Positions 9,806 through 35,231 of a stretch of 44,175 nucleotides of DNA are shown here, one piece after another. The translations under genes and the position numbers were made by a program. This DNA is from a virus. Under the pieces are notes generated by a model. That model ran no database searches. It was not told the DNA's origin and was given only the letters and a program-made list of their open reading frames with translations. The stretch lies in IMG/VR virus record IMGVR_UViG_3300029715_000022, positions 1 to 44,175 of that record; one strand, given 5' to 3'. Position 1 is the stretch's first letter, and every line of letters starts with the position of its first letter.

Positions 9806-9825
9806 TGCCCCAAGGAGAGTCTGCT

Positions 9826-11242: not shown

Positions 11243-11279
11243 AAAAGGCCCCGGCAGTCTCCTGCCGGGGCTGTTTTTG
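11243..11279. terminator. Bidirectional hairpin terminator closing the long minus-strand operon
   Basis: 10-bp stem gccccggcag / ctgccggggc with loop tctc. An A-run lies on one side and a T-run on the other. Confidence 0.7.
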
Positions 11280-11281
11280 TG

Positions 11282-11860: not shown

Positions 11861-11871
11861 ATCGTCCCTCC

Positions 11872-12258: not shown

Positions 12259-12312
12259 GGTATATCCTCCTTTGCTCAGGGGCGGCAGCTGCCGCCCCGA
12301 TCTCTCATCCCG

Positions 12313-13104
12313 TCAGAAGCAGCCGTAGCCCTGCTGGCAGCCTGCGCCGCAGTACGCCGCATGCGGGTTTTGCACCAGGTACGTCGGCTGCGGCGTCGAG
12401 TTGCCGGTCCGGCGGATCAGCTCTTCCGTGTTGGCGTCCATCGCGGCCTTGAGCACGGCGTTCTGCTCGCTCCGCGAGGCGGCCAGACGGAGCGTCTGGT
12501 TTTCCTGCTGCAGGGTCGAGATCTTGTCGTTGACCATAAAGTCCAGGATGCTGCGCGTGTTGGCGTTGGCGTTGTCGATCACGTCGCGGGCCGTGCTCTG
12601 GATGGTGTTGCGGATGTCGCAGCTCTGCGTCGCAAGGTTGTAGTTGGTGTCGGCAAAGCCTCGCTCCATCAGGCGCTGCGTCTCGCAGCAGCACTGCTGC
12701 TGTCTCGCTCCGAGGTCGCAGATCTGGCCCTGCACGCCGTTAAAGCCCTGCATCATGCCCATCTGCGTGGCGTTAAAGCCCTGCTGCATCGCGATCTGCC
12801 CGTTGAGCATGCCGGTGTTCATGGCATAGAAGCCGTCACACAGGCCGTTCTGGAGCCCGCGGATGCCGTTCTGGATCTCTGCCGTCACAAAGCCGTCGTT
12901 GACTGCCTGCCGCGTGTCGATGCCGCTGAGATACGGCACCGCCATACCGGCCCCGTTGTTGCCGTTGTTGCCCCAGTTGTTGCCAAAGATCAGGGCAAAC
13001 AGGATAATCACAATCCACCACGAGCCGCCGCCAAACATATCGTTGTTGTTGCGGTTGCCGGAGTCAGCGCCCAGCGCATACCCCATGCCAAAATCATCTG
13101 CCAT
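12313..13104 (-). CDS. N/G/Q-rich single-pass membrane protein with Cys-rich tail (263 aa)
   Basis: GAGGAGGA RBS. TM segment GGGSWWIVIILFALIFG. Q/N/G/M repeats, a CCC triplet and the C-terminus CGAGCQQGYGCF. Confidence 0.75.
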   Translation of the reverse strand: MADDFGMGYALGADSGNRNNNDMFGGGSWWIVIILFALIFGNNWGNNGNNGAGMAVPYLSGIDTRQAVNDGFVTAEIQNGIRGLQNGLCDGFYAMNTGMLNGQIAMQQGFNATQMGMMQGFNGVQGQICDLGARQQQCCCETQRLMERGFADTNYNLATQSCDIRNTIQSTARDVIDNANANTRSILDFMVNDKISTLQQENQTLRLAASRSEQNAVLKAAMDANTEELIRRTGNSTPQPTYLVQNPHAAYCGAGCQQGYGCF

Positions 13105-13206
13105 TGTTATATCCTCCTCAGTTATTTATGATCCCACGGGCCGCGCGCGCCCGGTGAGTCCTTGCTGCGCGGCTTTTCTCAGGATCCGCAAACCGAGTGG
13201 ATATGC

Positions 13207-13428
13207 TTACCGACGGAAGGGCAGCCCCAGCTGCTGTGCCATCTGCTCTACCGTCGTACCGCGCTCCCGCGCGGCGTTGTCCGCCATCTGGAGGAGCTGG
13301 TTATAATTTTTGCCCGCCAGCATCTGCTGCATCTGCTGGAGCTGAGGTCCCGCGCCCATCTGCTGCAGGGCACCCAGCGGGTTCCGGCCCCGCTGCGCCA
13401 TCTGGATCATCATCATGAGCGGATTCAT
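13207..13428 (-). CDS. Met/Gln-rich small protein (73 aa)
   Basis: GAAGGAGGA RBS. The ATG overlaps the upstream stop. Sequence MNPLMMMIQMAQRGRNPLGALQQM... Confidence 0.65.
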   Translation of the reverse strand: MNPLMMMIQMAQRGRNPLGALQQMGAGPQLQQMQQMLAGKNYNQLLQMADNAARERGTTVEQMAQQLGLPFRR

Positions 13429-13814
13429 TCTGCCGGTTCCTCCTTCTTTTCTGCGGCAGTGAGCCGCTCGCTGATGCCGTTAAGCTGCGCCTGCATCTGC
13501 TGCAGCATCGTCAGCACCGGGTCTGTCGCGGTCTGTGTGCCGTTCTGCGCGGGCTGCGGAGGCGGCGCGGGAATATACTCCCCAAAGCGTGCAGCGCCCG
13601 CCGCAGCGTCCCAGCGCTTGGTGTAGATGCGGTTGTTTTGGATGTCCGCAAACACCATCAGGCTGCCGGAAAAGTCCACCGGCGTTGAGCTTGCCTCCTC
13701 GCGGCTCGATACCATCCGGCACATCGGCCCCTGCGGCTGCAGCGGCTGCTGCCCGTAGCCTCCGTATACCGGCGGCATCACCTGATTGTACCCGGTCTGA
13801 TAGGGATATGCCAT
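13425..13814 (-). CDS. Protein with Y/G/Q/P-rich N-terminus (129 aa)
   Basis: AGGAGG RBS. Sequence MAYPYQTGYNQVMPPVYGGYGQQPLQPQ, followed by a short globular segment. Confidence 0.7.
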   Translation of the reverse strand: MAYPYQTGYNQVMPPVYGGYGQQPLQPQGPMCRMVSSREEASSTPVDFSGSLMVFADIQNNRIYTKRWDAAAGAARFGEYIPAPPPQPAQNGTQTATDPVLTMLQQMQAQLNGISERLTAAEKKEEPAE

Positions 13815-13854
13815 TGTCTCCGCCTCCTGTCTTTGATGGATATATCATACCGTC

Positions 13855-14139
13855 TCAGCCTCTGTGCTGTGCCCGCTTCCGGCGCGTCTGTGCCCGCAAT
13901 GTGTGCAGCCGCCGCTCGATCCCCTGCATCCGGCGGGATACCGTGCTCCGCGTCATCCCCTGCCCGAATTTGTCCTCCATCTCAAATGCGATGTCCAGCT
14001 GCGCCACCTGATCGATCAGGCAGCGCCGCGCGATGTAACTGTCCTCCTCCCCGAGGTTCGCCGCCCGGATCAGCGCCTCGACCTCCTCGCGCCGCATCCC
14101 GGCCGTGCAGCTCCCCGCCTGCATCCTGCCCTTTGACAT
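13855..14139 (-). CDS. Small sigma-70 region-4-like HTH protein (94 aa)
   Basis: AGGAGGGGG RBS before the ATG at 14139. HTH-like segment MTRSTVSRRMQGIERRL. Confidence 0.6.
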   Translation of the reverse strand: MSKGRMQAGSCTAGMRREEVEALIRAANLGEEDSYIARRCLIDQVAQLDIAFEMEDKFGQGMTRSTVSRRMQGIERRLHTLRAQTRRKRAQHRG

Positions 14140-14156: not shown

Positions 14157-14188
14157 ATAAAAATGGGAGAGGGCTTTCGCCCTCCCCC
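14157..14188 (-). terminator. Hairpin plus T-run after the giant gene
   Basis: On the minus strand: stem gggggagggc / gccctctccc (one bulge), followed by ATTTTTAT. Confidence 0.5.
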
Positions 14189-14204: not shown

Positions 14205-17200
14205 TTAATGCCACGGAGCCTTGTACAGGTCCCGCTCTGCGTAGCCCTCCGCCCGGTATAGCAGGTCTTTCTGCTCCGCCGTCAGCTGCAGGCTGTTGAT
14301 GAGTGCAAGGATCTTCGCCTTTTTCGATCCGCTGATTGATTTCCCGTTCGCGTCCTTGTCCGCGCTCAGTTCGGCCTTTTTCTGCCAGTACTGCATCCAG
14401 ATCTTTGCGCCGATTCCGCCGCTTCTTGCCTCCGTCAGTTTGTCGTAGGTCTCCTCGCTCAGCACGGTGCTCAGCGCCCTGTAGAGGCTGGTGTCCGTCA
14501 GGTTCTGCTTGAGCAGCACGTCCACCTTGTCGTTGGTCGTGAGCTGCCCGTTCTCGCCGGTCCCCTTTGCGCTGGCCAGCTTGTCGCTGACCTTTTTGGC
14601 GTCGGTCGCGCTCAGCCCGGCCTCCGTCAGGTTGGTGTAGCGCTCCGCCTCCTGCGCAAACATCTGGTAATACTTGAGGCCGTTCCGGATCGCCTCCCGC
14701 TTTTTGCCCTTGATGTTGTGCTGGTCGAGCCAGTATGCAAACTCGGAGGCCTGCTGGCTGCTGCTGAGGCTCTCGTCCTCGTACAGCGTCCGGTACTCCT
14801 CGTACACGTCCATCACGTCATCCCAGCTCATCCCGGCGTCCATCATGTTGGCGAAAACCTCATCCTTCGAGGTCGACTTCGCGCCGGTCTCCTTGTCGGC
14901 CACGCCGAACACCTCGGCATAGATGTATGCCTTAACGCTGTCCCGCACGTCAAGCTCCCGGATCGCGGTGCGCTTCTGCCGGTTTTTGTCGTTGGTGGAG
15001 AGATTCTCGTCCCCGTCCGCCTGCATGAGCTTGTTGTAAAACTGCGTCACGCCGTCCCAGCTCACGCCCTCGTCCATCAGGGTCTCGAACATGGCGTCCG
15101 TTGCGTGCTCATACTCGCCGGTCTCCTTGTTCCTCCGGCCGAACTCCTGCCGGAACAGGTAAGCCTTTTGCTCGTCGGTCAGGCCGGAGTTGTTGATGGC
15201 GTCCCGGATATCCCGCTGCGCCTGATCGGACGTCAGGGTGTCGTCTGCGTTGATCTTGATAAACTCATGCAGCAGGTTGTAGGTCTCGATCGGGTCTGCC
15301 CCGTCCTTGGATAACGTCTGCCACGTCTGCGTGTCCTTGGTCGACAGGCTGGAAAGCCCGGAGGCCCAGTAGGCATTTGCCTGCGGCGTCGCGTTTGGCC
15401 CGAAGAGGATGTTTTGCAGCGCCGTCCCAACGTTCCGCTCGACCGGATACTGCAGCCGCTCCTTGTCCCCGAAGCCCTTTGTCCGTCCTCCCTCGACGAT
15501 CGTTTTGATGCCGGAGTACGTCTTGTTGATCTGCCGCCCGCCGGGGATCGCCTGCGTCACAAGCCCGAGCAGTGCCTCTCCGCTCTCCGGAGAGATCAAG
15601 CCGTGCTCTGTGGCTGCGTCCCACAGGTCTTTGCCCTTGCCGAACAGGTCCGGCATCATCAAAGTTCTGTCTCCCACGCCGACCATGCCGGAGAGATTGG
15701 AAAGGAACGGTACCTCATTGCTGATGTTATACAGCGTGTCCTCCACAGCGTTGCCCCAGTCAAAGCCCTCCTGCGGCGTCGGAACGTCGTCGAACAGGTC
15801 TGTTCCGAACATGGCGTTGCTTGCCTTGTTGAGCATGTATCGGATCCAGTCGTTGGTGGTCAGGCCCTCTCCGGATGCAATGAAATTCATGGACATGCCG
15901 ATGATATCGAACGGGGCCGGAGTCCCTCCGTAAAGCTCCTCCGTCACGCGGTTGACCACAAAGGCCGCAAGCACGGTCTTCAGGATCACGCTGCTGAGCA
16001 CGCGCGCTGCCTTGGCCTTTCCGCTCTCCGCCGCGATCTGCCGGAACTGCCGCGGGAGATCCTGCGACACATGTTCCCAGCTGTTGAGCGCCTCGATCTG
16101 GAACATGTTGACCATCTGCATAACAGGCGTTTTGGAGTGGAACATCAGCGGCTTTGCGCCCTTGGTGCGGTCGCCCATGATGGAGCGTGCGTAGGCGTCT
16201 GCCGCCCGCATGGCCTCCTCGTGCGTCTTGCCGTCACGTATCGCGTCGAGGTATGCCGCTCTGGCCGCGATCGTCGACATCATCGTGTCGACGAATTCGG
16301 CCGGCTTAAACATGCCGGACATAAACGAGTCCGCGAAGGTGTTGGAGATATAATCCACGCCCTTTTTGCCCGTGATGAAATCGCTGTCCATCTGGAACTG
16401 CCGCAGCTTGCCGGTTGCAAACTCCGCCGTCGCCTGTGCGATGGAGCGCTTGCTCCGCTCCCCGAGGATCGTCGGCAGCTGCGCGATCTGGTTGACGGCC
16501 GACGAGACGTTGCCCGCAACATTGGCCCTCGCAAACGCCTGCGTGAGCTGTGTGCCGAGCTTCAGGATGCCGCGGCCTCCTCTGTGCTCTGCCCCGCGGT
16601 CTCCGCCGAACTGCTTCCCTGCCAGCACGTCGCCGTAGTTTTTCAGCCATACGGCAAGATCGGAATACCGCGTATTGTTTTTCTCTGCGGCGAACAGCTC
16701 GGCGATATACTGGTCAAGCTGTTTGTTGATCTCCGCTGTTGTCGGCTCTGCGAAATCATCGACCCGCTTCAGCTCGCGCAAAAAGTCCAGTTTCTCGTCG
16801 CGCTGCCCGCTGCGGGAAAGCTCGATCGCCTCCGCCAGCGAATTTTTGAAGTCGTTCTTGCCGCCGAGGCGTGTATAATTTTCCAGCGCGCGGATTTTCT
16901 GGATGTCGTCCGTGTGGAAAAGCACGTCGGACAGGTACGTCACATAGCTCTCAAACCCGTGCACGATGTCGTACTCGGTCTGCGTCCCCTCGCGGCTCTG
17001 GAAGAACGGCGTCCAGCGCTTGTTCGGCCGGAAGTCCTCCGTCCTGCCCGCGATCTCCGCCGGGAGCCTCGTTGCACTGGCGTTAAAGCCCAGCGCCTCG
17101 AACGCCTGGTTGAGCAGGTTGACCTTGTCTGCCGTGCTCAGGTGCGGCGCGTAGTAGTCGATCTTGCCGATCGGCTCGTCACCATGCGACACGAGGAAAT

Positions 17201-20200
17201 CCGCAATGGCGTTGTAGTAGTCGTCAAAGAGCTGCCGGTACTGCTTCACGGCCGCCGCGCATTTCTTCTCGTCGATCTCGCCCTTGACGCCGTCCTTCTG
17301 CGTCAGGAACTGTGCGTACTGCTGCGCCCACTTGCTTTCTGCGGCGTTCAGGTCGAGCTCCGTCGCCACGCGCTGGATCTCCGCCTCTCTGGCCTCCGCG
17401 TCCGGGCTGGCCTTCTGCGCGGTCTCCATCTTGGTCAGCTCCGTCACGGCCTTCTGAATCGCGGCCTTGTTCGGCGACTGGTTGATCCGCTGCACGGTCG
17501 CCTCGATGTCGAGGGCCATGTGGACGTAGGCACTCTCGGCCTTGTTCAGGCCCTTGACCTTGTCGCCCTCGCCCTGGAACTCGCGCACCGCGTCGAGCTG
17601 CCGGTTCATCCAGCGCAGTCTCTCCGCCTCGTTTCTCGTTACCGGGTCGAAGTAGTACCGGTTGATCTCCTCGCCGCGCTTGTCGCCGAACATCTTGAGC
17701 ATCGAGCGCTGCGGCGTCCGGTAGTTGAGTACGAGCAGGGCCTCCTTGTCAAAGCCGCCCGGATCGCTCATCAGCTCCAGCTCGTCCGGCAGCAGCTCCA
17801 TGGCCTTGTAGAGCAGCGCGTCGCGGATCGCGTACTTGCGCTGCAGCCGCAGGTCCTCACCGAGCATGCGCTTGTCGATGTACAGGTTGGCGAGGTCCGT
17901 CACCGTGTCCCACCTTGCCGTGTCTGGGATATCAGCATAGGAGTACCGCCCGGCCGCGATGTCGCGCGCGAAGTTCTTTTCGAGCGCCGTCGCGCCCCAT
18001 CGGCGCTCCGCCTTGGAGATCAGCTTGTCGGTCTGGTATTCCGCCTCGGCCCGCTGCCGCATCTCCTTGGTCGTCCGGTAGTCCGTCACGCCCATGTCGA
18101 TCTTGACGCCGATCTTGTCGAGCGCCGGGGTCGCGCGGAAGCTGTCCTTTGCCACGCCCTCAGCCGCCACGGTCGTCGCCCTTGCCGGGGCCTCTCCGTT
18201 CCGGTATGCTGCTGCGTCCGCGTCCGCTCTGGCCTTCTTGGCTGCGTTCAGGCGGTTCGCCGCCTCCTGCGGGGTGTACATGCCCTGCTTTGCCGCAAAG
18301 TCCGTCTCCACGGCGCGCCAGCCGCCGTTCTTGCGCGGCTCCACGCGCCAGCGCTTCCCGGTCACGGCCTCCAGCAGCTCCACGGCCTGCTTGGGCGACA
18401 GGTCCGTCGTCTGCGAGTAAAACGGCACATCCTTGCCCCATACAAACCCCTGCGGCATGGCGTTCGTTTTCTGCTGCACCCAGTCCCGGAAATAGCTCTC
18501 GCTCAGGACCGGCTCCCCGCGGTCATCCGCATACCCGAGCACGTCCTCCGGCTGCGTCTCCTCCCGGTCGCTTGCCAACTCCTTCCCACGGATGCCGTTC
18601 TCGCGGATGTCCTGCAGATCCTCCTGTACGGAGAATTTCTGCAGCGGCCCAATCACGCTTGTAAATTTTTCTCCGGATATCTTGACACCGTCGGCGTCAT
18701 ATGCTATACTTCCAATATAGCCGTCCTTGTGCGAACCGTCTGGGCTACCGCTTCGGTAGCCCAGCGACCGAAGCACCTGGGCGGCTCTTTTTGCGTCTGT
18801 GTACAGCACGTTGCTGTCCTCCAGCGAGAGTCTGCCCCCATCCTTCGTGTATGCACTGTTTACCTTCTGCATTCCCTCAAACCTGTATCCGCCCTCCGTC
18901 GGAAGCAGGTCCAGCACGACCTGCACGGCTTTCCCGTTCTCGGCTCTGACGTCACCGAACATGACGAGCCGGGTGTTTGCGTTTTCTGTGTCTACCGCTC
19001 GGCTCGCCAGCACGATCGCGGGGTTTTCCAGCACCTGCGGGAGCGCTTCAATGGTCTGCAGGCTCATCTCCTTATGGGTTCGCATGATCTTGGATATCTT
19101 CCACCCGTTCAGGTAGATGTTCCCGTCCTCTGCCCCCAGATTCTGCAAAACGGGGCCTGTCGTTCCTAATATCAGCCGCTCGTTCCCGTTGCGGCCTCCC
19201 CGGTCCCATCTCTCCAGGTCACTCTTGTACTGCTCGTTGATCTCTGCAGAGATACCTCCGCCCCCGCGGAACAGCGTGTTTTCATCCGCGCCCTTCGGCG
19301 CGGTTTTTCTTCGCTCTTCCTGCGCCATGCGGTATCGCTCGGACACGTTGCGCGCCTCGATCTCTCCCGCCGTGTTGAGGTACATCTCGTAATACGCGGA
19401 CTGCGGGTTCTCCATCTTCCGCTGGAGGTCAAGCAGCCGCCGGAACCACTCGTTTTTGTAGAGCTCCTCATACAGCTTGTCCTGCTCCGCCTCGTATTTC
19501 GCGTACCGCTTCCCGGCCTCGCTTTCCGGGTCTGCCGTAAACGTCGCCTCCATCTCGCGGTCAAGCTCGTTGTAGCGGATCACCTTGTTTTGGTCTGCCT
19601 TGTCGAGGCTGGTCAGGATGCGGCTGTAAAGCTCCTGCGCGCGGTCGCTTGCAGTGTCGCCGCTCTCATACTCGCGTGCCGCCCAGTATTCCGGGCTTGC
19701 TCCGCTCTCCCAGCCCTCGATCTGCTGGATCGCGTGCTGGATCTCGTGCAGCATGGTCCCGACTTTTGCGCTGTCTCCCGGCTTGTCCTCGGAGATCGTG
19801 ATGGTGTTGGTGCTCGGGTCATAGCTTCCGTTCTTGCTTCCCGTGTCGCTCTCCAGCCGGACCTTGACATTCCGCAGCTCCGGGTACGCCTCATAGAGCG
19901 AGTCATGCTCCAGTACGTCCGCAAGCGTCGCGTTCCCGCTTTCTACCCGCTCGCGCAGCCTCGCATACTCTCCGCTCCAGATATCATCCAGCTTCTCCAT
20001 GCGCTGCATTTCGCTTTCGCTGATCGTTCCCTCAAACATCTTCTGCAGCAGGTCCTGATATTCCGCATAGTCGGCATGATCCTCCCGGAACTGTGCATCT
20101 CCGCCGCCGCGGTATTCCGCCTCGCTGTTATCGATCTCAAAGCGCCAGCTCTGGCCGTCCATGGTGCGCGTCCATCCGGTCTCCTGCCAGATTTCCTCGC

Positions 20201-23200
20201 TGCTCGCGCCCTCCTGCTCCATCTGCTCGGCGAGCTGCAGCGTCTGTGAGTTCGCCGTTCTGGCCTTCTGCCCGGCAAGCGAAAATCGCCCCTCCGGGCT
20301 TCCCCTCGTCTCCTGCGAGGTCTGCGCCGGTTCGGACGCCCGCTCGCTCTGCTGCACTTCGCTCTGCACAGCCTCCGTGAACTGCGTCGCGCCCGCGCGG
20401 AACCGGTTCATGCCGGCGTAGGCGTCTGCGAGGACCTCCTCGTAAACGTCCTCCATGCTCTGGTAGGCCCCGCTGTAGCTCTGCACATACTCGCGCGCCA
20501 CCTGCTCAAATGCTTCCTCGCCGAACGTCTCCCGGACCTTTTGCAGCGCCTGCTGCACGAGGGCCGGGTCTTTGTTTCCCCGGACGTGGAAGAGCTCATG
20601 CTGCGCCAGCTGCCCGCCGTCATACTGGATGTCCGTCGCGCTGACGACGGCGCGCTTCACCGCCGCGTCATATACGCCGTTGATGCGCATCAGCTGATCT
20701 CCCCGCTGCATGGCCATCGATCCGCGCACAAAGACGACGTCCACGCCGAGCTCCGCCCCAGCCTGCTTTGCCGCCCGCATCCCGTCGTCATACATGCTCT
20801 CCGGGATCACGGCCAGCGTCACGGCATCCGATCCGCCCCGCACGAGTTTCGCAAGGCTGGTGTCGCTCTGCAGGCTGGCGTAACGGTTCAGCCGTTCCGC
20901 TCTTGCTGCGTCTTCGGGCCGTAGATTCGCTCGACGATTTGCCGGACCATTTTCTCCTGCTCCGGCGTAAGCGTTCCGCCGCTCTCCTTCTGCCGCTGCT
21001 GCTCCTGCTGCCATGCCTCCAGTCTGCTCTCCGGTACCCAGACCTGCATCCCGTTGGCTGCCTCCATCAAAAATCTCCGTTCTGCCATTGTCGATTCCTC
21101 CGGTTTCTGCCGCATTCACGGCGGCGTTTGTTTCCGCTTCCGCGCGGATGGTGTTGACGCCCTGCGCAGCCTCCTGCACGGTCTCCTGCTCTGTCTCGGT
21201 CTGCGGCGTCCCCTCTCCGTATCTCGCGTTGAGATACGCCTGCAGGTTCGCCGTCGCGCCCTCGTTGATCATGCTCAGCTCGTTTCGGAGGTTCAGGGCC
21301 GTCATGGCATCCATCGTGCCATCCTGCACGGCCTTGTCAAGATAGCTTTCGGCCGTCCGGGCCATTTTCGCGATCTCTGCATCCATGCGGCCGGTCATCG
21401 CAAAATTCGTCGCGTTCTCCTCGGCGCTGTCCCATGCCTGCCGGATCTGTCGCACATTCTCCTCCAGCGTCTCCTCCGAGAAGGTCTTGGCGTCTACGCC
21501 TTCGATGCTCCCTCTCGCATCCGCGATCACGCGCTCGGCATCCGTCCCCCGGTATGCCTTCCCCTCTCCGGTCTTGGCCCAGTATGCCTCGGCATCCACG
21601 AGATTCCGATACACCGTATTGTACTCGTTCACGGCCTGCGCCCAGCTCTTTTTTGCTGTGCTGCGCTGCACATGATCCCAGCCGTTGGCGAGCATCAGGT
21701 CCTCGTCGCCCGCCAAAAACTCGACGGCGTACTTTTCCATCTGGAGGTTCAGCTCTCCGCGGTCGCTCTGCGCCGCCGCGTCGAACATCGTGATGCGCTT
21801 GGCGTTGCCCTCGTGGTCGTTTTTGGCCAGCACTTCGGCCGTGTCCGGTCCGATGCTCAGGATCATCGCCAGAGCGAAGCCGGAGATAAACTCATCGCGC
21901 AGCTCGTCCCAGCTCAGGTCTGCCTCGCCGGTCAGCGCATAGTCCAGCGCGGCCGAACCGATCGCAGAGGCCACCTCTTCGAGGCCCTCGCCGATGCGAT
22001 CAAAGAACTCGGAGGAAATAATTTTCCGGATCGTTTCGTTTTTGAATAGCTTATAGCAAAACTCCGTCACCTTGCCGGTGTCCCCGGCGTCGATCAGCGG
22101 GTTTCCGCCGAAGAGCATGTTTGTTCCGTATTCCAGCAGACCGCCCGCGGCGAAGCGGATAAACTGCTCGCCTCTCGCGTCCCCGTTGCTCTCTGCCTCA
22201 CCGTAGGAGTTGATCGCCGCGAAGCTGCTCGTCACGATGTTGCTGCCCCGCTTTGCCATCTGCGCAAACTTCTCGGCCTTCGTCGCGGCGCTTGTCACCA
22301 GCGGCGATACCTGCCTGCCGCCCCCGGCAAAGCTTGCCATCGTTCCGGTCGCCGCCCCGGCAATTGTGGCGGAGGCCGCCATTTCCAGCGCGGCCGTCGT
22401 CAGGCCGGAGATCTGCTCCGCCGCCCAGCGTTCAAACTTGCCGCCGTTCTGCAGCAGGTCAGACGTCTCACGCCCGCGCACCCAGTCCTGATATTTGGCC
22501 TCCTGCCATTCCGGATTCCGGTAGTTGATGTTTTCCTCGCCGCCCTCGGCGAAGTAATCGCCCAGATCGTTTTCAAACGCGCCGAAGCCATTGAGCAGGC
22601 TGCCCAGCGCCTTCCCGGCGTAGCCCCCTCCGCGGACGAGCAGCTGCTCCAGTCCGGCCGGGTACTTCTGGAACAGGTTGTCGCGCGCCCTCTCCGAGCC
22701 GCTCGCCACCTGGTCGAGGAAGGAACCCGCCGACATCTCGGGGTAGCTGTTGAGCGCATCCTCCGCACCCTGTTCGTTTGCGCGCAGGCCGTTGGTCTCG
22801 CGCTGCTGGCGGTAGGTCTCCAGCTGGCTGACCACGTCGCTCGTCCCGTAGCCGCTGACGGCCCGTGTCGCCGGAGCGTTTTTGGCGTAGCGGTCGAGCA
22901 CCTGCATGTACCGGTCATACTGCTCCTGCGTCATGGCCACGTTGGCGAGGTACCCAAAGATCGCAGCGTCCGTCGCCGCGCCCTGCGACTGGCTCGTCAC
23001 GTCCGCCTGCGGATCCACATGCTTGCCCGCTGCGTCAAGCAGCTGGTCGACGCTCTTGTACTGGATGTTTTCGCGCGTCGTGCTCTGGTTGTAGCGCAGC
23101 TCATAGCCAAAGGTATTCCGGTCGGTCGGTATGCCACCCGCTGCGGCAAGCATGGCGTTCTGCTGCGCCTTGCCCGCTGCGGTGTAGTTTTCGTCTCCCA

Positions 23201-24026
23201 TCACCGGCCCGCGCAGTGCGTCCGTCCACTTCTGTTCGCGCTGGCCGAAGCTGCGGCCCTTAACCCCGCTTCGGTATGCGTCGTAGGTGTCATATACCTC
23301 GCTCACGAGCTTGTTGTACTCATCTGCGCTCATGCTCTGGCTGTAGGCCAGATAATACAGGCGGCTGGCCACATCGTCCCACTTTTCCTTCGCGGCTGCG
23401 GCGTCCGTTCCGCTTTCCCCGGCAGTCCGCAGCTCCTGCAGCTCCTGCCGGATGGTCTGGCCGTGCTGTTCCGCTGTCTGGTTCAGGCTGTCCGTGAACA
23501 GCTTTTCAAGCGATTCCCCTCGGACTCTCGTCAGCCTCTGGCGGTACGGCCCGGTCTTGTCCATCTGCAGGGCATTCTCCGCCTGCTGCTGCAGCTGGCT
23601 GCCGGTGCGGACCGGCAGCTTCGGCCGGTATCCCTGCTGGATGCCTGCGTCTACGCCCATGCCCTGCCATTCGTTCGCCTTTCGCAGCTCTCCCCACATG
23701 CCGGTCGCAGCCTTGTACAGCGACCCCACATTTCGCACAGCGTACTTTCCCTGCTCTGCGATCTGCTGCACCTTGGATTCTTTGCGCGCCGCGAGCCATT
23801 CGGCCATTGCGTCGCGTCCCTCCTCCTGCCGTACCGGCGTAGAGGACTTTTCCGTTTTTCCCGTCTTTACCCCGGTCAACGCCGTTGTCGTTTTCTTCGC
23901 CTGCTCCAGGATCTGATCTACCTTGATCTGCGCCTGACGCACGGCCCCGTGCTCCGGGGTCGCGCGCTGTGCAGCTTTCTCTGCATTCCGTTTCGCCAGC
24001 CATTCGGCCATTGCGTCCCTCGGCAT
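14205..24026 (-). CDS. Giant multidomain virion-associated protein (3273 aa) with two zincin-type HExxH motifs; polyvalent-protein-like
   Basis: Uninterrupted 9.8-kb ORF with an AAGGAGGAG RBS. HELFH at aa 1143-1147 (nt 20586-20600). HEIQH at aa 1427-1431 (nt 19734-19748). Several hydrophobic segments. Repeated ~70-80-aa helical units in the last ~370 aa. Confidence 0.9.
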   Translation of the reverse strand: MPRDAMAEWLAKRNAEKAAQRATPEHGAVRQAQIKVDQILEQAKKTTTALTGVKTGKTEKSSTPVRQEEGRDAMAEWLAARKESKVQQIAEQGKYAVRNVGSLYKAATGMWGELRKANEWQGMGVDAGIQQGYRPKLPVRTGSQLQQQAENALQMDKTGPYRQRLTRVRGESLEKLFTDSLNQTAEQHGQTIRQELQELRTAGESGTDAAAAKEKWDDVASRLYYLAYSQSMSADEYNKLVSEVYDTYDAYRSGVKGRSFGQREQKWTDALRGPVMGDENYTAAGKAQQNAMLAAAGGIPTDRNTFGYELRYNQSTTRENIQYKSVDQLLDAAGKHVDPQADVTSQSQGAATDAAIFGYLANVAMTQEQYDRYMQVLDRYAKNAPATRAVSGYGTSDVVSQLETYRQQRETNGLRANEQGAEDALNSYPEMSAGSFLDQVASGSERARDNLFQKYPAGLEQLLVRGGGYAGKALGSLLNGFGAFENDLGDYFAEGGEENINYRNPEWQEAKYQDWVRGRETSDLLQNGGKFERWAAEQISGLTTAALEMAASATIAGAATGTMASFAGGGRQVSPLVTSAATKAEKFAQMAKRGSNIVTSSFAAINSYGEAESNGDARGEQFIRFAAGGLLEYGTNMLFGGNPLIDAGDTGKVTEFCYKLFKNETIRKIISSEFFDRIGEGLEEVASAIGSAALDYALTGEADLSWDELRDEFISGFALAMILSIGPDTAEVLAKNDHEGNAKRITMFDAAAQSDRGELNLQMEKYAVEFLAGDEDLMLANGWDHVQRSTAKKSWAQAVNEYNTVYRNLVDAEAYWAKTGEGKAYRGTDAERVIADARGSIEGVDAKTFSEETLEENVRQIRQAWDSAEENATNFAMTGRMDAEIAKMARTAESYLDKAVQDGTMDAMTALNLRNELSMINEGATANLQAYLNARYGEGTPQTETEQETVQEAAQGVNTIRAEAETNAAVNAAETGGIDNGRTEIFDGGSQRDAGLGTGEQTGGMAAGAAAAEGERRNAYAGAGENGPANRRANLRPEDAARAERLNRYASLQSDTSLAKLVRGGSDAVTLAVIPESMYDDGMRAAKQAGAELGVDVVFVRGSMAMQRGDQLMRINGVYDAAVKRAVVSATDIQYDGGQLAQHELFHVRGNKDPALVQQALQKVRETFGEEAFEQVAREYVQSYSGAYQSMEDVYEEVLADAYAGMNRFRAGATQFTEAVQSEVQQSERASEPAQTSQETRGSPEGRFSLAGQKARTANSQTLQLAEQMEQEGASSEEIWQETGWTRTMDGQSWRFEIDNSEAEYRGGGDAQFREDHADYAEYQDLLQKMFEGTISESEMQRMEKLDDIWSGEYARLRERVESGNATLADVLEHDSLYEAYPELRNVKVRLESDTGSKNGSYDPSTNTITISEDKPGDSAKVGTMLHEIQHAIQQIEGWESGASPEYWAAREYESGDTASDRAQELYSRILTSLDKADQNKVIRYNELDREMEATFTADPESEAGKRYAKYEAEQDKLYEELYKNEWFRRLLDLQRKMENPQSAYYEMYLNTAGEIEARNVSERYRMAQEERRKTAPKGADENTLFRGGGGISAEINEQYKSDLERWDRGGRNGNERLILGTTGPVLQNLGAEDGNIYLNGWKISKIMRTHKEMSLQTIEALPQVLENPAIVLASRAVDTENANTRLVMFGDVRAENGKAVQVVLDLLPTEGGYRFEGMQKVNSAYTKDGGRLSLEDSNVLYTDAKRAAQVLRSLGYRSGSPDGSHKDGYIGSIAYDADGVKISGEKFTSVIGPLQKFSVQEDLQDIRENGIRGKELASDREETQPEDVLGYADDRGEPVLSESYFRDWVQQKTNAMPQGFVWGKDVPFYSQTTDLSPKQAVELLEAVTGKRWRVEPRKNGGWRAVETDFAAKQGMYTPQEAANRLNAAKKARADADAAAYRNGEAPARATTVAAEGVAKDSFRATPALDKIGVKIDMGVTDYRTTKEMRQRAEAEYQTDKLISKAERRWGATALEKNFARDIAAGRYSYADIPDTARWDTVTDLANLYIDKRMLGEDLRLQRKYAIRDALLYKAMELLPDELELMSDPGGFDKEALLVLNYRTPQRSMLKMFGDKRGEEINRYYFDPVTRNEAERLRWMNRQLDAVREFQGEGDKVKGLNKAESAYVHMALDIEATVQRINQSPNKAAIQKAVTELTKMETAQKASPDAEAREAEIQRVATELDLNAAESKWAQQYAQFLTQKDGVKGEIDEKKCAAAVKQYRQLFDDYYNAIADFLVSHGDEPIGKIDYYAPHLSTADKVNLLNQAFEALGFNASATRLPAEIAGRTEDFRPNKRWTPFFQSREGTQTEYDIVHGFESYVTYLSDVLFHTDDIQKIRALENYTRLGGKNDFKNSLAEAIELSRSGQRDEKLDFLRELKRVDDFAEPTTAEINKQLDQYIAELFAAEKNNTRYSDLAVWLKNYGDVLAGKQFGGDRGAEHRGGRGILKLGTQLTQAFARANVAGNVSSAVNQIAQLPTILGERSKRSIAQATAEFATGKLRQFQMDSDFITGKKGVDYISNTFADSFMSGMFKPAEFVDTMMSTIAARAAYLDAIRDGKTHEEAMRAADAYARSIMGDRTKGAKPLMFHSKTPVMQMVNMFQIEALNSWEHVSQDLPRQFRQIAAESGKAKAARVLSSVILKTVLAAFVVNRVTEELYGGTPAPFDIIGMSMNFIASGEGLTTNDWIRYMLNKASNAMFGTDLFDDVPTPQEGFDWGNAVEDTLYNISNEVPFLSNLSGMVGVGDRTLMMPDLFGKGKDLWDAATEHGLISPESGEALLGLVTQAIPGGRQINKTYSGIKTIVEGGRTKGFGDKERLQYPVERNVGTALQNILFGPNATPQANAYWASGLSSLSTKDTQTWQTLSKDGADPIETYNLLHEFIKINADDTLTSDQAQRDIRDAINNSGLTDEQKAYLFRQEFGRRNKETGEYEHATDAMFETLMDEGVSWDGVTQFYNKLMQADGDENLSTNDKNRQKRTAIRELDVRDSVKAYIYAEVFGVADKETGAKSTSKDEVFANMMDAGMSWDDVMDVYEEYRTLYEDESLSSSQQASEFAYWLDQHNIKGKKREAIRNGLKYYQMFAQEAERYTNLTEAGLSATDAKKVSDKLASAKGTGENGQLTTNDKVDVLLKQNLTDTSLYRALSTVLSEETYDKLTEARSGGIGAKIWMQYWQKKAELSADKDANGKSISGSKKAKILALINSLQLTAEQKDLLYRAEGYAERDLYKAPWH

Positions 24027-24036
24027 AGGCTCCTCC

Positions 24037-25269
24037 TTAGTTCACGCCCCAAAGCGAGGCGAGATAGTTTTTCTCCGCCATCGTCAGATGCCCGGCGTTA
24101 TAGTCCTGCGTGATCCGGTTAAAGATCGATTCCATCGCCGCGTACTGATCCTCTGCGCTGCGCGGATATCTCGACGAGCTGACGATGTCCCGGTAATACT
24201 GCTGCCCCAGCGCGCTGAGCTGGCTGCTGTCTGCAATCGTCGGCGTATTCCCGTCTGTGCCTCCCGTTGTCCCGCCCCCGCTTCCCGATCCGCTCCCGCC
24301 CCCGCTGCCGGAGCTGTACGAGCCGCCGCCGGATCCGCTGTAGCCGCCTCTCTGCGCCTGCACACCCGCGAGGATGCGCTTCGCGTCCTCGCCGCTGATC
24401 CCGGCCTGTGCCAGCATCTCCGCGCTCGGCATCTGGCCCAGCTGCAGCATCGTCATGGCGAGGTTATAGGCGTTCTGGCGCTGCTGCTCGTTCTGGGTAT
24501 ACTTGTCCAGCTCCTGCTGGTATCTCCACTGCTCGCGCTGCCAGTCGGCGTCCTGCTGCGCCTGCATCTTCTGCCAGTTCTGGTAGCTCTGGTCCGTCGT
24601 CGGCGTGCCCACGCCCACGCCCAGCACGCTGGATACCTGATCGTCCGCATAGCCGAGCTGCTGCCAACGGTTGAGCGCCTCGTTGATGCGCAGGCTGTAG
24701 TCGCTCTGCGCGGCGCTGCCCGCGTTCATGAGGGCCGAGAGGTAGTTGTACTGATCCTGCCGGGCCGTCTGCTGCTCGTTGTACCAGCGGTTATAGGCCT
24801 GCTGCTCAAGCTCGGGTACCTTGTCGGCCAGCTGCGCCTTGTAGTTGTCGGCCGCCTGACTGGCCGCCGCAATGGCCTGCGTGGAGGCAAGGCCGCCCGT
24901 CTGCTTGGCGTAGGCCCCCAGCGTGTCGCGCATCGTCCGGTCGCCCTCGCGCAGGTAGGTCTTGCGGTACTCCTGCATGGCTGTGTCGTTTTCGGGGTCC
25001 CATTTGTAGGCCCCGCCGCTGTTTTCCTGCAGGCGCTTGATCGCAGCGTCCAGCTCCTCCTGATAGGGGTTCTTCCAGCCGGTGTTTGCTCCGGCCCCCT
25101 GCAGGTAGTTGGCGTACTGGTTCGTCTGCGCCCACTGGTTCAATCCCTCGCCCGCGATCTTCTCATTACGCATCTGCTCATAGATCGCTGCCTGTGCATA
25201 ATTGCCCTTCGCGGCCGCGTCGTCCATCAGCTTTTTGTAGTCCGTATCCTTGTTGTATCCGTACTGCAT
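24037..25269 (-). CDS. Q/N-rich protein with Gly/Ser linker, probable internal or ejected virion protein (410 aa)
   Basis: AAGGAGGGG RBS. Q/N/Y-rich helical sequence, GGYSGSGGGSYSSGSGGGSGSGSGGG linker. Located between the portal-like gene and the giant gene. Confidence 0.75.
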   Translation of the reverse strand: MQYGYNKDTDYKKLMDDAAAKGNYAQAAIYEQMRNEKIAGEGLNQWAQTNQYANYLQGAGANTGWKNPYQEELDAAIKRLQENSGGAYKWDPENDTAMQEYRKTYLREGDRTMRDTLGAYAKQTGGLASTQAIAAASQAADNYKAQLADKVPELEQQAYNRWYNEQQTARQDQYNYLSALMNAGSAAQSDYSLRINEALNRWQQLGYADDQVSSVLGVGVGTPTTDQSYQNWQKMQAQQDADWQREQWRYQQELDKYTQNEQQRQNAYNLAMTMLQLGQMPSAEMLAQAGISGEDAKRILAGVQAQRGGYSGSGGGSYSSGSGGGSGSGSGGGTTGGTDGNTPTIADSSQLSALGQQYYRDIVSSSRYPRSAEDQYAAMESIFNRITQDYNAGHLTMAEKNYLASLWGVN

Positions 25270-25278
25270 GGCCCCTCC

Positions 25279-27315
25279 TTACTGCATGCCCTGCGGCATG
25301 CCCATCTGCTGCTGCATGGCCTGCTGCGACTGCATGGCCATGGCCTGCGCCTGCTGCTGCGCAGCCTGCTCCTCCAGCAGCTTTTTGATCGTCCCCGCGC
25401 CGGGGTAATTCTGCATTTCCATTTGAGACCAGTATCGGATCAACGTCTGCGGCTCGCTCGGGTTGCCGTAAGCGCCGCTCTGCAGGTGCTGCGTGATCTC
25501 CTGCCACATGGCCTCTCGGTTCGCGGCAAGCCCGGACGCGTTGTCGCACGAAAAGCGGAACTGATCGTTCCAGTAGAGTTCTCCCGCCTCGTCGCACTCC
25601 AGAAATGCCCACGAGTTCCATTCGGTGTCCATCTCATTCTTGCCGTGCATCTTCCGCCGCTCCTCGCAGTATGCGAGCTTGTTTCGGAAAAGCCGCTCGA
25701 AGATCTCGGCCCACGCGGCCTTCTTCATGATTTTCTTCGATTCGATTCGGCCGGCCGCCTGCGCGGCCGAAAACTCCTTGGCCTTGCCGGACGTCGCCGT
25801 CGTGTCCGTCCTGCCCTGGAACGAGTCCGTGATGCCGAGGATCCTTCGGCTCTCCTCGTAGACGTGGTTGAGGTATGCATACGGCCACTCGAGGTCGCCG
25901 GTAAAATCAAACTGCTTGACCTGCGCCAGATCGGACTGCGGCATGTACCACAGCTCCTGATCCTGCCCGTCCATGCGCAGGCCGGGGTTGTCCGGCATCG
26001 CGATCTTCGTTCCCCATTTCGAGATGCGCGTGATCATCTTGCGGCTCAGGTGATTTACCGTGTTCTGCTGATCTTTGATCTTGTCGCAGTCGCTCTCGCC
26101 CAAAAACGTGCCCCACGCGGTAACGTTCCGCTGCAGCACGACGGGGTAGATGTTCGGGCGGTAGTATGGCACCCAGTATTCCGTTTCCGCCTGCGTCTGC
26201 GTGTTGTACGGAGGCAGCGTCTCAGGCCCCAGAATCGTCTCTGCGCCGCTTTCTGCCTCCGGCGTCAAACTACCCGCTGCGCCCACGACTGTCTCGTCCG
26301 GCGTAAACTCCGGCTCTGCCGCAGTCGGTTCCGGCGCAGTCATTCCCTGCAGGCGGTTCAGAACGTCCTCGCGGACGCCCTTTTCCCGCAGGTCGGCGAT
26401 GGTCATCCAGCGTCCTTCCTCGTCCGTCTCCTCCCAGCTGCGCGCGCCGCAGTAGGCGCAGGCGTCCTTTCTCCGCCGCTCCGGCGGCAGCCCCTGCGGG
26501 TACTCGCCGTTTACGGTCGGGCCGACCATCTTCCAGTTTGCCGAGTCTGCCTCTGTCTGTCCGCACTTTTTGCAGCGGCGCAGGCGGCGGCTCTGGCAGT
26601 CCTCCAGCTCCTCGCAGACCGTGTCGCCCACCCAGACGATGCGTCCGACGCCGCCGTGCTCGTTGCGGTAGTAGGCTGTCTCCAGCGTGACGAGGTCCTC
26701 GGCCGTGCTGGCCTCCTCGCCGCGCAGGCTGGCGTCCTCCTCCGTCTCGTCCGAGACGTCCACGCCGTACCGGCGCTTGACGTATCCCTTGGTCTGCGGC
26801 ATGCGGAGAAACATGTAGTCCATGTCCTCCGGCTCCTCGACGCCGTCCTGCGGGATGTAGCGCTTGGGGTGCAGCACCGTGATGCTGTTCTCGCCGACGG
26901 TCGTGTGCGTCCGCTGTGCGCTGTCCCACTCCACGAGATACAGCACGCCGCCCTGCACCTTGCAGGTTCGCTCTGCGCGGTCGTTGATGCGCTCCGCTGG
27001 CAGCCGGTCCAGCTCGTCCAGGAGCATGGCCTCGATCATTTTGCCGAGCAGGTTGTCCTGCTGGCGGCTCGGCGTTACCTTCCCGGTCGGCATACTGTTG
27101 TCGATCTCCGATTCGATGTTTTCGCTCGTGATGTTCCAGACGTGTGGAGTTTCCGTCGGCTCGTCGATCCCGTTTTCTACCAGCGGCCGCAGCGCGTGTC
27201 CGCCCTTGTACTGCACCTCGCGCGCGTCCATCTTGTCAAGCTCCCCGGCGTAGGCCTGCAGGTTGCGGTCCAGCTTGTCCTGCCACTTGTGCAGGGTCTT
27301 TTTCTCGTTGTCCAT
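25279..27315 (-). CDS. Portal-like protein with an inserted CxxC...CxxC zinc ribbon and a Q-rich C-terminus (678 aa)
   Basis: AAGGAGGA RBS. Size, position near TerL and the Q-rich tail (EEQAAQQQAQAMAMQSQQAMQQQ) fit a portal. The assignment comes from pattern recognition only. Confidence 0.55.
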   Translation of the reverse strand: MDNEKKTLHKWQDKLDRNLQAYAGELDKMDAREVQYKGGHALRPLVENGIDEPTETPHVWNITSENIESEIDNSMPTGKVTPSRQQDNLLGKMIEAMLLDELDRLPAERINDRAERTCKVQGGVLYLVEWDSAQRTHTTVGENSITVLHPKRYIPQDGVEEPEDMDYMFLRMPQTKGYVKRRYGVDVSDETEEDASLRGEEASTAEDLVTLETAYYRNEHGGVGRIVWVGDTVCEELEDCQSRRLRRCKKCGQTEADSANWKMVGPTVNGEYPQGLPPERRRKDACAYCGARSWEETDEEGRWMTIADLREKGVREDVLNRLQGMTAPEPTAAEPEFTPDETVVGAAGSLTPEAESGAETILGPETLPPYNTQTQAETEYWVPYYRPNIYPVVLQRNVTAWGTFLGESDCDKIKDQQNTVNHLSRKMITRISKWGTKIAMPDNPGLRMDGQDQELWYMPQSDLAQVKQFDFTGDLEWPYAYLNHVYEESRRILGITDSFQGRTDTTATSGKAKEFSAAQAAGRIESKKIMKKAAWAEIFERLFRNKLAYCEERRKMHGKNEMDTEWNSWAFLECDEAGELYWNDQFRFSCDNASGLAANREAMWQEITQHLQSGAYGNPSEPQTLIRYWSQMEMQNYPGAGTIKKLLEEQAAQQQAQAMAMQSQQAMQQQMGMPQGMQ

Positions 27316-27324
27316 GTGTCCTCC

Positions 27325-35230: not shown

Positions 35231-35231
35231 G

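Follow-up and report, generated by a model that had tools for sequence, protein, structure and literature searches.

The Giant Gene and Its Genome

The stretch of DNA considered here (hereafter, the window) is the 44,175-nucleotide IMG/VR virus record IMGVR_UViG_3300029715_000022, positions 1 to 44,175, and it is dominated by a single gene on the minus strand (14205..24026) that encodes a polyvalent protein of 3273 amino acids (aa), 363 kDa, and pI 5.0 (hereafter, the giant). Bases 1-99 of the window recur at 44077-44175 as a 99-bp terminal overlap of assembler origin; the window is therefore a complete circular genome of ~44,076 bp, of which the giant gene occupies 22.3% (22.2% of the window). 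An initial annotation, made from the sequence without database searches, had described a single uninterrupted 9.8-kb open reading frame (ORF) of 3273 aa filling about 22% of the genome and had read its product as a packaged, injected multi-effector protein; the frame and its share of the genome are borne out, and all sequence strings quoted in that annotation lie at the residues given for them. The uninterrupted frame opens with an ATG codon preceded by an AAGGAGG Shine-Dalgarno sequence, and it is clearly coding, given the GC contents at codon positions 1, 2, and 3 (0.62, 0.43, and 0.82) and the low ratio of nonsynonymous to synonymous polymorphism (pN/pS) relative to a 97%-identical relative (0.10 overall and 0.02-0.21 in every one of the variable 400-aa bins).

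Intact, full-length, and near-identical copies of the giant are present in more than 100 independent ~44-kb metagenome assemblies (97-99% identity; 100% for the protein P0002), and the nr database already holds a 97%-identical copy under the name "Large polyvalent protein associated domain 23". A megablast search of the giant gene against GenBank phages matched nothing. Two long antisense "shadow" ORFs, one opposite the giant (15414-19169, plus strand, 1251 aa) and one opposite the portal region (24088-27795, plus strand, 1235 aa), most likely arise as artefacts from the high GC content of the antisense frame.

A Conserved Frame Around a Variable Cargo Cassette

The giant consists of a conserved frame (an N-terminal module, an all-alpha C-terminal module, and tail repeats) that surrounds a variable cargo cassette. 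This division is apparent from a coverage map of the whole giant against 150 representatives of its family, in which coverage is below 10% by single-sequence search in the N-terminal region (aa 1-900), ~55% over a first peptidase (aa 950-1250), ~18-20% over an LPD23 domain and a second peptidase (aa 1250-1600), ~6% over a MuF_C domain (aa 1600-1750), nearly complete over the C-module (aa ~1950-2950), and ~65% over the tail (aa 3050-3273). All features of the giant described below lie on the minus strand.

The C-module (15249..18179, aa ~1950-2926) is an all-alpha region that defines the family. An exhaustive search with aa 2074-3273 over 1.84 billion representatives retrieved 2690 clusters (50% identity) at E<=1e-3 and 1131 at E<=1e-30, nearly all of them giant proteins (relatives span 1,500 to 5,671 aa, with a median of 2635 aa) that match near their C-terminus. 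The N-module (21795..22688, aa 447-744) is a Gly/Ala-rich domain with an invariant GEGxEEV motif; a converged iterative search with a hidden Markov model (HMM) placed it in 111 of ~154 family members, always near the N-terminus, and its HMM also matches (E 5.5e-43) the 2685-aa giant of an uncultured faecal phage (MT835607, hereafter L006). Neither module is matched in Pfam, PHROGs, NCBIfam, or the PDB sequences; when three segments of the giant (phmmer) and the profiles of both modules (hmmsearch) were run against the PDB, the best matches were Q-rich or low-complexity artefacts.

The AlphaFold2 model of the C-module (predicted local distance difference test score, pLDDT, 73; predicted template modeling score, pTM, 0.69) consists almost entirely of helices. 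Its best Foldseek matches in the PDB (E 0.19, TM-score ~0.1), to generic helical repeats and transporters, were rejected as noise. Against the BFVD, in comparison, the C-module gave 43 matches at E<=1e-3, all to segments that come late (_2, _3, _4) in phage proteins of great length, many of which take their names from quite different cargo (ADP-ribosyltransferase, methylase, helicase, nuclease, lysozyme, MuF-C, and "structural protein [Podoviridae]"). Two of these are clear homologues (39% and 23% identity), and the remainder, at 10-14% identity and TM-scores of 0.2-0.35, are remote fold matches between predicted models that may be regarded as suggestive.

Within the C-module lies a hydrophobic helix (15942..16016, aa 2671-2695; Kyte-Doolittle hydropathy up to 1.9), followed by the motif ELYGGTPAPFD; it falls within a C-module hairpin at aa ~2634-2699. 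In 122 of 134 members, the helix coincides in the alignment with the most hydrophobic window of the protein. As this helix carries a conserved Lys and about three charged residues, it may insert in a membrane or may simply be a core helix. The several hydrophobic stretches reported at first thus reduce to this strong one, together with a marginal one at aa 716-734, so that "several" was an overstatement. Ahead of the C-module is a small conserved domain (18234..18461, aa 1856-1931). Downstream of it are two tandem ~78-aa helical repeats (14778..15248, aa 2927-3003 and 3006-3083), whose Smith-Waterman score of 134 far exceeds that of shuffled sequences (39 +/- 6.6, z=14), even though a BLASTP comparison of the giant with itself did not detect them. 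The C-terminal tail (14208..14777, aa 3084-3273) holds one further weak partial repeat (aa 3234-3259, E 0.006). Accordingly, where the last ~370 aa had been read as an array of ~70-80-aa repeats throughout, two robust units and a partial one stand and the full array does not. An HMM of the repeat unit finds one to five copies per family member.

At the opposite end, the variable N-terminal leader (22689..24026, aa 1-446) was recovered only in the closest relative by iterative HMM search. It contains a duplicated ~28-aa unit (aa 3-30 and aa 71-98, 23733-24020; z=10 against shuffles), within which falls the RDAMAEWLA string that had been noticed twice at the N-terminus and that is indeed seen at aa 3 and aa 71. 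Comparable N-terminal duplications of unrelated sequence occur in 10 of 94 testable family members (z>5); in the L006 giant, for example, the duplication is discernible by eye (GRITLTEEQKRIA / GRITLNQKQIQIA). It is conceivable that such duplications serve as a targeting or packaging signal. Between the N-module and the cargo is a variable, partly disordered linker (20910..21794, aa 745-1039), with pLDDT <50 at aa ~980-1032.

Predicted Enzyme Domains of the Cargo Cassette

The cargo cassette carries an LPD23 domain (20115..20282, aa 1249-1304) that matches Pfam PF18838 at E 2e-19 (69.5 bits against a cut-off of 27) and in which T1283, G1284, D1290, and W1294 are invariant among 35 sequences. 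Further along is a MuF_C domain (18747..19169, aa 1620-1760), a predicted RNase of the PBECR clade, whose match to Pfam PF18819 spans aa 1643-1749 and profile positions 1-102 of 103 (E 1.8e-10, 41.3 bits against a cut-off of 27.6). Residues K1643, H1651, S1675, and Y1726 of this domain are invariant in eight sequences, and the domain is 39% identical to that of the L006 giant; its model is an alpha+beta fold at pLDDT 60-80 with no significant fold match in the PDB. The initial annotation had picked out by eye a PBECR-like segment at about aa 1620-1730, and the call was right, because the segment, including HKEMSLQ at aa 1651, falls inside the significant MuF_C match and because Iyer et al. (2017; PMC5512222) place MuF-C in the PBECR clade of predicted RNases.

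The two HExxH zincin-type motifs noted at the outset, QHELFHVRG at aa 1143 and MLHEIQHAIQQIEGWE at aa 1427, are present and lie well above chance (expectation ~0.02; 3 of 20,000 shuffles contained two or more), each within a well-modeled domain with invariant catalytic residues. In the AlphaFold2 model of the central region (aa 960-1800, from a 25-sequence alignment), the first zincin-like metallopeptidase domain (20322..20909, aa 1040-1235; pLDDT ~95) is predicted to comprise a helix, a five-stranded sheet, the HELFH helix (aa 1143-1147), and a later Glu helix (EEVLADAYAG, aa 1196-1205). H1143, E1144, and H1147 are kept in 71 of 71 relatives, and E1197 and D1201 in 70 of the 71. The second zincin-like metallopeptidase domain (19257..19949, aa 1360-1590; pLDDT 90-96) is modeled as three strands, the HExxH helix (HEIQHAIQQIE, aa 1427-1437), a helical insert, and a Glu helix with GEIEAR (aa 1554-1559). 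Ten of its residues are invariant in 28 of 28 sequences, the HExxH motif and E1437, E1555, and E1557 being among those conserved; this domain matches phrog_13543 (E 1.4e-20) and always accompanies LPD23.

Conservation of the catalytic residues fits active enzymes. As modeled, both domains conform to a gluzincin arrangement (an HExxH helix, a Glu ligand from a later helix, and a preceding beta-sheet), and the same zincin arrangement is described for the peptidases of polyvalent proteins in PMC5512222. Structure prediction, one of the checks put forward with the initial annotation, thus returned a zincin-like topology for both HExxH domains at pLDDT 90-97. In the Pfam check, an LPD domain (LPD23) and the PBECR-clade MuF_C were found, and MPTase-PolyVal and the MuF N-terminal domain (Phage_Mu_F, PF04233; absent from the giant at E<=1) were not. 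Since the only match to a known zincin family in Pfam was to Zn_peptidase_2 at E 0.035, with MPTase-PolyVal unmatched, the two domains are best described by their predicted folds as zincin-like, with no narrower family assignment.

The same data bear on whether the giant could be an N4- or crAss-type virion RNA polymerase. A protein of this size, encoded where it is in a podovirus-like genome, would suit that role, and N4 gp50 likewise has a zincin domain; nevertheless, no polymerase family was matched in Pfam or PHROGs, the confidently modeled central domains are all peptidase, LPD23, or PBECR, and the all-alpha C-module has no PDB fold match to polymerases. The initial annotation had seen no DFDGD-type motif by eye, and a scan of the giant for DxDGD or DFDGD motifs agreed in finding none. 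This identity is extremely improbable and, as far as sequence and fold searches reach, is refuted.

Between the first peptidase and LPD23 lies a short motif, GSPEGRFS (20280..20303, aa 1242-1249), with the consensus [TR]G[PSA]P-x(1-6)-[RK][FY]S. It is found 31-54 aa past the ADAYA helix of peptidase 1 in 22 of 69 carriers, against a chance expectation of ~0.009 per window and ~0.6 in total. The modules that follow the motif differ among relatives, and in one relative (P0110, described below) a 190-aa insert falls inside it. Judged from these sequence patterns, the motif is a candidate processing site or a candidate module (recombination) junction.

Module Exchange and Distribution of the Family

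Relatives of the giant mount different cargo on the same architecture. Among twelve large relatives, the cargo includes ddrB-ParB (five), LPD23 (five), ART-PolyVal (three), PBECR5 (two), and PBECR3 (two), as well as, in one case each, an SNF2 helicase with an Eco57I-type methylase, LPD3, and a SprT-like domain. The order of modules is also permuted, such that MuF_C precedes the LPD23-peptidase pair in some relatives, follows it in others, and elsewhere stands ahead of peptidase 1; the L006 giant has the N-module, peptidase 1, MuF_C, and the C-module without the block of LPD23 and peptidase 2. Exchange is visible even among relatives that are 96-99% identical: P0110 has a 190-aa insertion between aa 1244 and 1245, exactly before LPD23; P0040 has a 127-aa insertion at aa ~1838-1842, just upstream of the small domain at aa 1856-1931; and in P0001, aa 827-1068 are duplicated in tandem. 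The 127-aa module of P0040 recurs at other positions in six other family members, and neither inserted module (P0040 or P0110) has a Pfam match. Public protein names in the family reflect only the cargo, as seen in 21 matches from a word-index-limited profile search of a 5.8-billion-protein database.

In the GTDB, sampled at one genome per species, 41 loci encode the C-module, and almost all belong to Oscillospiraceae or related Clostridia from guts. Those on long chromosomal contigs include cultured Oscillibacter sp. MSJ-31 as locus L016 and the two Oscillospiraceae isolates CM710M_45 and CM74B_53B as L017 and L018. A recurrent companion of the giant in such loci is a protein of 410 aa in the window (354-546 aa among homologues), which lies immediately upstream of the giant wherever it is present in the loci whose ORF layout was examined (L008, L013, L017, L027, L043, and L006); in the other loci with a match, the homologue is upstream of the giant on the same strand. 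Homologues of a third protein, of the phrog_511 family (550-600 aa), are found further upstream in many loci (e.g., L006:2937-4691, L013:1132-2784, and L043:2656-4437). Because the position of the portal gene varies among loci, it is the 410-aa gene, and not the portal, that constitutes the conserved neighbor; its product is a candidate partner, co-ejected protein, or chaperone.

Gene Neighborhood and Phage Lifestyle

Nearly all genes of the window are on the minus strand, and the following, given in transcription order, share that strand. A replication initiator (41127-41933) and the small terminase TerS (40065-40619) are followed by a collagen-like tail fibre (38113-40068) and a protein with a carbohydrate-binding module (CBM). 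Next is a 612-aa metallophosphatase (35736-37574) with a calcineurin-like metallophosphoesterase domain and a Big_2 Ig-like domain; this is an unusual enzyme for a virion module, placed as it is between the tail-fibre and lysis genes, and its matches to "major tail protein" are confined to the Ig domain. A nucleoside 2-deoxyribosyltransferase-like gene (35232-35603, phrog_355) is located just upstream of the amidase endolysin (34175-35284) and, like a PAPS-reductase/PP-loop gene in the early region (1360-2472), may have a nucleotide or DNA-modification function. A holin and two proteins without an assigned role lie between the endolysin and the major capsid protein (MCP; 30898-31908), which precedes the large terminase TerL (29368-30864).

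The genes that lead directly to the giant are those for a 600-aa member of the phrog_511 "internal virion protein" family (27325-29127, E 1.3e-35), a 678-aa portal (25279-27315), and the 410-aa protein (24037-25269). The phrog_511 member aligns only with the C-terminal half of the 862-position PHROG profile. The portal matches phrog_156 over nearly its full length (E 8e-31; SU10_portal is matched weakly), and its counterpart in L006 does so at 6e-75. Some relatives have no 678-aa gene between the phrog_511 gene and the 410-aa gene, and the phrog_511 protein was considered as a possible portal; this idea was rejected in the light of L006, where both families occur and a clear phrog_156 portal lies at another site. 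The 410-aa protein is rich in Q, A, G, and Y and has a Gly/Ser linker at aa ~308-340; it has no family match in Pfam, PHROGs, or NCBIfam, and Phage_Mu_F is absent from it at E<=0.01. The order first described, in which the giant follows a portal-like gene and a Q/N-rich gene, therefore corresponds to a phrog_156 portal and this Q/A/G/Y-rich protein. An NCBIfam search of the giant, 410-aa, 600-aa, and portal proteins returned zero matches.

The gaps between the phrog_511, portal, 410-aa, and giant genes measure 9-10 nt each (10 nt between the last two), and an intrinsic-terminator-like hairpin (14165..14188, minus strand) with a 10-bp stem, eight GC pairs, and a following T-run is positioned 17 nt past the giant stop codon; the giant therefore closes the late operon. 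Beyond the hairpin are six small minus-strand genes (11282-14139) encoding proteins of 94, 129, 73, 263 (phrog_16490), 128, and 192 (DUF7841) aa, and then an integrase on the plus strand (9802-10980). In a 97%-identical relative integrated on a 137-kb contig (L003), the prophage-host junction at L003:22947 corresponds to position ~11088 of the window, between the DUF7841 gene and the integrase (interval 10980-11282), and the host side past the junction carries ABC-transporter, phosphodiesterase, and HAD genes. Given that relatives carry an integrase and repressors and that the element is integrated beside host genes, the phage is temperate. The window contains no type IV secretion system (T4SS) genes, and TerS, TerL, MCP, portal, fibre, and lysis genes share one strand block.

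Searches of Pfam and PHROGs found no tail tube, sheath, tape-measure, or chaperone family among the genes of the genome, from which gene content it may be deduced that the virion is probably short-tailed; adaptor or tail components not otherwise accounted for may be encoded by the six small genes that separate the terminator from the attachment site. When the portal, MCP, and 600-aa protein were compared with GenBank phages by tblastn, the only matches were unannotated human faecal fragments, with no cultured relative.

A gene of such length invites comparison with the tape-measure proteins (TMPs) of long-tailed phages, some of which, in Gram-positive siphophages, share with the giant great length, a mostly alpha-helical composition, Gly-rich segments, a hydrophobic helix, and embedded peptidases. 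The neighborhood just described argues otherwise, as the giant is flanked by the portal and 410-aa genes upstream and by small ORFs downstream and not by tube, chaperone, Dit, or Tal genes; the initial annotation had made the same point about tube and chaperone genes, and none was matched among the structural genes. Likewise, no TMP family was matched by the giant in Pfam (E<=1) or PHROGs (E<=0.01), and the 50 best BFVD fold matches include no protein annotated as a TMP, those with names being mostly polyvalent or other large multidomain phage proteins. Tape measures scale at ~1.5 Å per residue, so that 3273 aa would imply a tail of ~490 nm, and a ruler would also be difficult to reconcile with relatives that range from 1,500 to 5,671 aa through gain and loss of enzymes. 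A TMP match accompanied by tube and chaperone genes, named in the initial annotation as the outcome that would overturn its reading, was looked for and not found, and a tape-measure role is largely refuted and very improbable.

An external or tail-associated device (a needle, plug, or wall-penetrating structure whose peptidases digest the Gram-positive wall while the protein stays with the particle) has more to recommend it. The host has a thick wall of the Gram-positive type; an extended rod could be built from the helical repeats and the long alpha-helical C-module; small, uncharacterized genes of the structural module come directly after the giant; and a wall-degrading role has been suggested for the peptidase of gp47, a giant protein of the Stx phage phi24B (bioRxiv 10.64898/2026.04.10.717836). 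On the other hand, the cargo of the giant and its relatives has cytoplasmic targets (RNases, an ADP-ribosyltransferase, ParB-like domains, and a helicase-methylase), and a separate fibre and CBM protein are already present. HExxH zincins with a downstream Glu are protein peptidases and not of the usual peptidoglycan endopeptidase types, and neither a beta-helix nor a receptor-binding or lysozyme domain was found in the giant with Pfam and PHROGs. Such a device is accordingly judged quite unlikely.

Comparison With Known Systems

The closest general precedent is the class of polyvalent proteins (Iyer, Burroughs, Anand, de Souza, and Aravind, 2017, J Bacteriol; PMC5512222), which are characterized by many effector domains per polypeptide (LPD and PBECR/MuF-C domains among them), a gene situated among virion genes, strong mosaicism in domain order, and a zincin-like peptidase as the commonest hub. 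The giant shares all of these, and the cargo of its relatives (ART, DdrB-ParB, and methylase-helicase) fits the inventory given there. It differs in having no MuF N-domain or portal fusion, in having HExxH domains outside the Pfam MPTase-PolyVal model, and in its ~1,300-aa frame, which matches no Pfam LPD or other family; no mention of a shared structural frame for polyvalent proteins was found in the passages of that source that were consulted.

Among individual proteins, gp47 of phi24B (2811 aa) is abundant in virion proteomics, unseen by cryo-electron microscopy (cryo-EM), and proposed to be a capsid-stored ejection protein (bioRxiv 10.64898/2026.04.10.717836). It resembles the giant in belonging to a temperate phage (there, a podovirus) and in combining LPD and MuF-C domains, a likeness that rests on the description of size and domains and not on comparison of frame sequences; it differs in its Gram-negative host, in its LPD5, LPD1, and LPD38 domains, and in that presence in the virion is established by proteomics for gp47 only. 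Prophages phi1 and phi4 of Clostridium clostridioforme LM41 are temperate, ~41 kb in size, and predicted from gene content to be podoviruses, and each, as described, has one 8-kb polyvalent-like ORF covering ~20% of the genome at the prophage end, likewise in gut Clostridia (PMC11318856). The best BFVD match of the C-module is likewise named "LPD3 [Podoviridae sp.]". The LM41 host is, by contrast, a member of the Lachnospiraceae, and this likeness, too, is one of description.

Coliphage N4 gp50, a ~3,500-aa virion RNA polymerase with a zincin-like domain and terminal injection and encapsidation regions (as outlined in PMC5512222), parallels the giant in placing enzymes between two terminal regions and in its zincin-like domain. 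It differs in that the giant lacks a polymerase and that no sequence similarity was detected between the terminal regions. The giants of three cultured podophages, Pseudomonas AF AF_016 (2213 aa), Pseudomonas 8P 8P_023 (5145 aa), and Bacillus Dartukuta gp57 (4203 aa), share the block of LPD23 and second peptidase with the giant at 26-30% identity. AF_016 occupies the position of T7 gp16, after internal virion proteins A and B and a structural lysozyme, and 8P_023 is annotated as a "structural protein"; HMMs of the N- and C-modules detected nothing in the AF, 8P, and Dartukuta giant ORFs, such that cargo alone is common to them.

The Dar proteins of P1 (DarB and DdrB) are head-packaged and injected, according to PMC5512222, and DarB-type methylase-helicase and DdrB-type ParB domains are cargo in relatives of the giant; these domains are absent from the giant of the window, and P1 is a myovirus. 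With respect to the T7-type ejectosome (gp14-gp16), no PDB sequence or fold match was found for any segment of the giant tested, nor was an SLT domain found with Pfam, and a functional analogy is possible.

Proposed Packaging and Injection

The giant carries at least two effector or LPD domains on one polypeptide, is encoded by a phage among virion genes, and has relatives of mosaic architecture. In view of these testable features of the class as set out by Iyer et al., of the LPD23 name already given to the nr copy, and of the similar ORFs noted in LM41, the giant is an uncharacterized member of the known polyvalent class, within a very large uncharacterized subfamily. For the frame of N- and C-modules, its size, and its co-conserved 410-aa partner, no description was found.

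Taken together, it is probable, with an appreciable margin of doubt, that this temperate and probably short-tailed phage of gut Oscillospiraceae encodes in the giant a phage-type polyvalent protein, one that is loaded into the capsid and injected with the DNA. By analogy and operon context, the giant would most likely travel inside the head and enter the host along with the genome. Several lines of evidence point to packaging: the giant ends a tight operon that also encodes the portal, the 410-aa protein, and the phrog_511 "internal virion protein"; the LPD23-peptidase block sits in the 8P "structural protein" and in AF_016, which holds the position of T7 gp16; the analog gp47 of phi24B was found in virions by proteomics; short-tailed phages generally store ejection proteins in the head; and N4 gp50 offers the precedent of an injection region, an enzyme, and an encapsidation region in one polypeptide. 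The computational tests proposed in the initial annotation all came out in the direction it had predicted, and its picture of a packaged, injected multi-effector protein is upheld for the multi-effector architecture and supported overall, with packaging the part that is inferred only.

A possible sequence of events may be outlined. The giant would be made late, as the product of the last gene of the operon it shares with the phrog_511 protein, the portal, and the 410-aa protein, and a few copies would be loaded into the procapsid by means of the conserved frame. It would then exit through the portal and tail, ahead of or with the DNA, while the frame, possibly together with the 410-aa and phrog_511 proteins, would help to span the Gram-positive envelope. 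In the new host, the cargo would act during the first minutes: peptidase 1 may cut the polypeptide at the GPPxxRYS-type junction and free the modules, after which the RNase and peptidase 2 would attack host RNA or protein in counter-defence or takeover. Across the family, a shared frame carries cargo that varies from phage to phage. Labor would most likely be divided such that the frame serves loading and envelope crossing, peptidase 1 self-processing, and the RNase and peptidase 2 effector functions.

Several observations weigh against this account. There is no direct evidence of the giant, or of any member of the family built on its frame, in virions. The phage-type architectures of Iyer et al. 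usually rely for packaging on a MuF N-domain or a fusion to the portal, and the giant has neither. As the HMMs of the frame miss the giants of cultured podophages, the analogy with them rests on cargo and not on the frame. Most BFVD matches to the C-module reach only the low identities and TM-scores given above (10-14% and 0.2-0.35), and the hydrophobic helix with its conserved Lys could be a buried core helix. Neither HExxH domain matches the MPTase-PolyVal family of Pfam, and the zincin matches obtained with Foldseek against the PDB, using an 841-aa multidomain query that makes for a weak test, were non-significant (PprI/IrrE at E 0.36, lethal factor at rank 31). Cleavage at the junction motif is a proposal, the strict pattern of the motif being present in only about one-third of the carriers of the first HExxH motif, and virion morphology is read solely from gene content in a lineage with no cultured relative.

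The absent packaging handle and the lack of proteomic evidence for any member of the family would also be expected if the giant were made in the infected cell and never packaged, acting as a cytoplasmic anti-defence or takeover protein or as a morphogenesis factor outside the finished virion. Proteins of the P1 DdrB type are, moreover, processed before packaging (PMC5512222), so that perhaps only a fragment enters the head. Yet gene order speaks for the virion, with the giant closing a late structural operon whose genes, those of the portal and the phrog_511 "internal virion protein" included, are closely packed. A counter-defence protein expressed late is useful only if carried to the next cell, the analog phi24B gp47 is in virions, and an enzyme confined to the cytoplasm would have little evident need of ~1,300 aa of conserved, non-enzymatic frame. 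A non-packaged giant is thus considered unlikely.

The preferred reading, that of a capsid-loaded and injected polyvalent protein, may be extended in a more speculative direction. The N- and C-modules could represent an undescribed modular delivery chassis of Clostridia phages, a tentative proposal that is entertained as a whole, at rather long odds, and that has three parts. One end of the frame would load the capsid while the other, with the 410-aa partner, would build a conduit across the envelope; any effector placed between the modules would be injected, with peptidase 1 cutting the GPPxxRYS-type junction to release the cargo; and the remote BFVD matches would signify a similar frame in many giant polyvalent proteins across tailed phages.

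Significance and Outlook

Polyvalent proteins are regarded as the earliest phage molecules to act in a newly infected cell; nevertheless, experimental work covers almost none of them, and not one from the Clostridia, strict anaerobes that dominate the human gut. The family described herein (~2,700 clusters at 50% identity) is found in prophages of Oscillospiraceae and carries interchangeable peptidases, RNases, ADP-ribosyltransferases, ParB-like domains, and a helicase-methylase. As cultured lysogens exist (e.g., Oscillibacter sp. MSJ-31), the idea of a packaging and injection device is testable.

A giant polyvalent protein would in itself be unsurprising to a specialist; the frame, in contrast, provides a concrete handle on protein injection by phages of gut anaerobes. 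If it is indeed a packaging and injection device, it would explain how these phages deliver counter-defence enzymes, the sequence between the two modules would become a handle for finding new anti-defence cargo, and the frame could be engineered to inject chosen proteins into gut bacteria.

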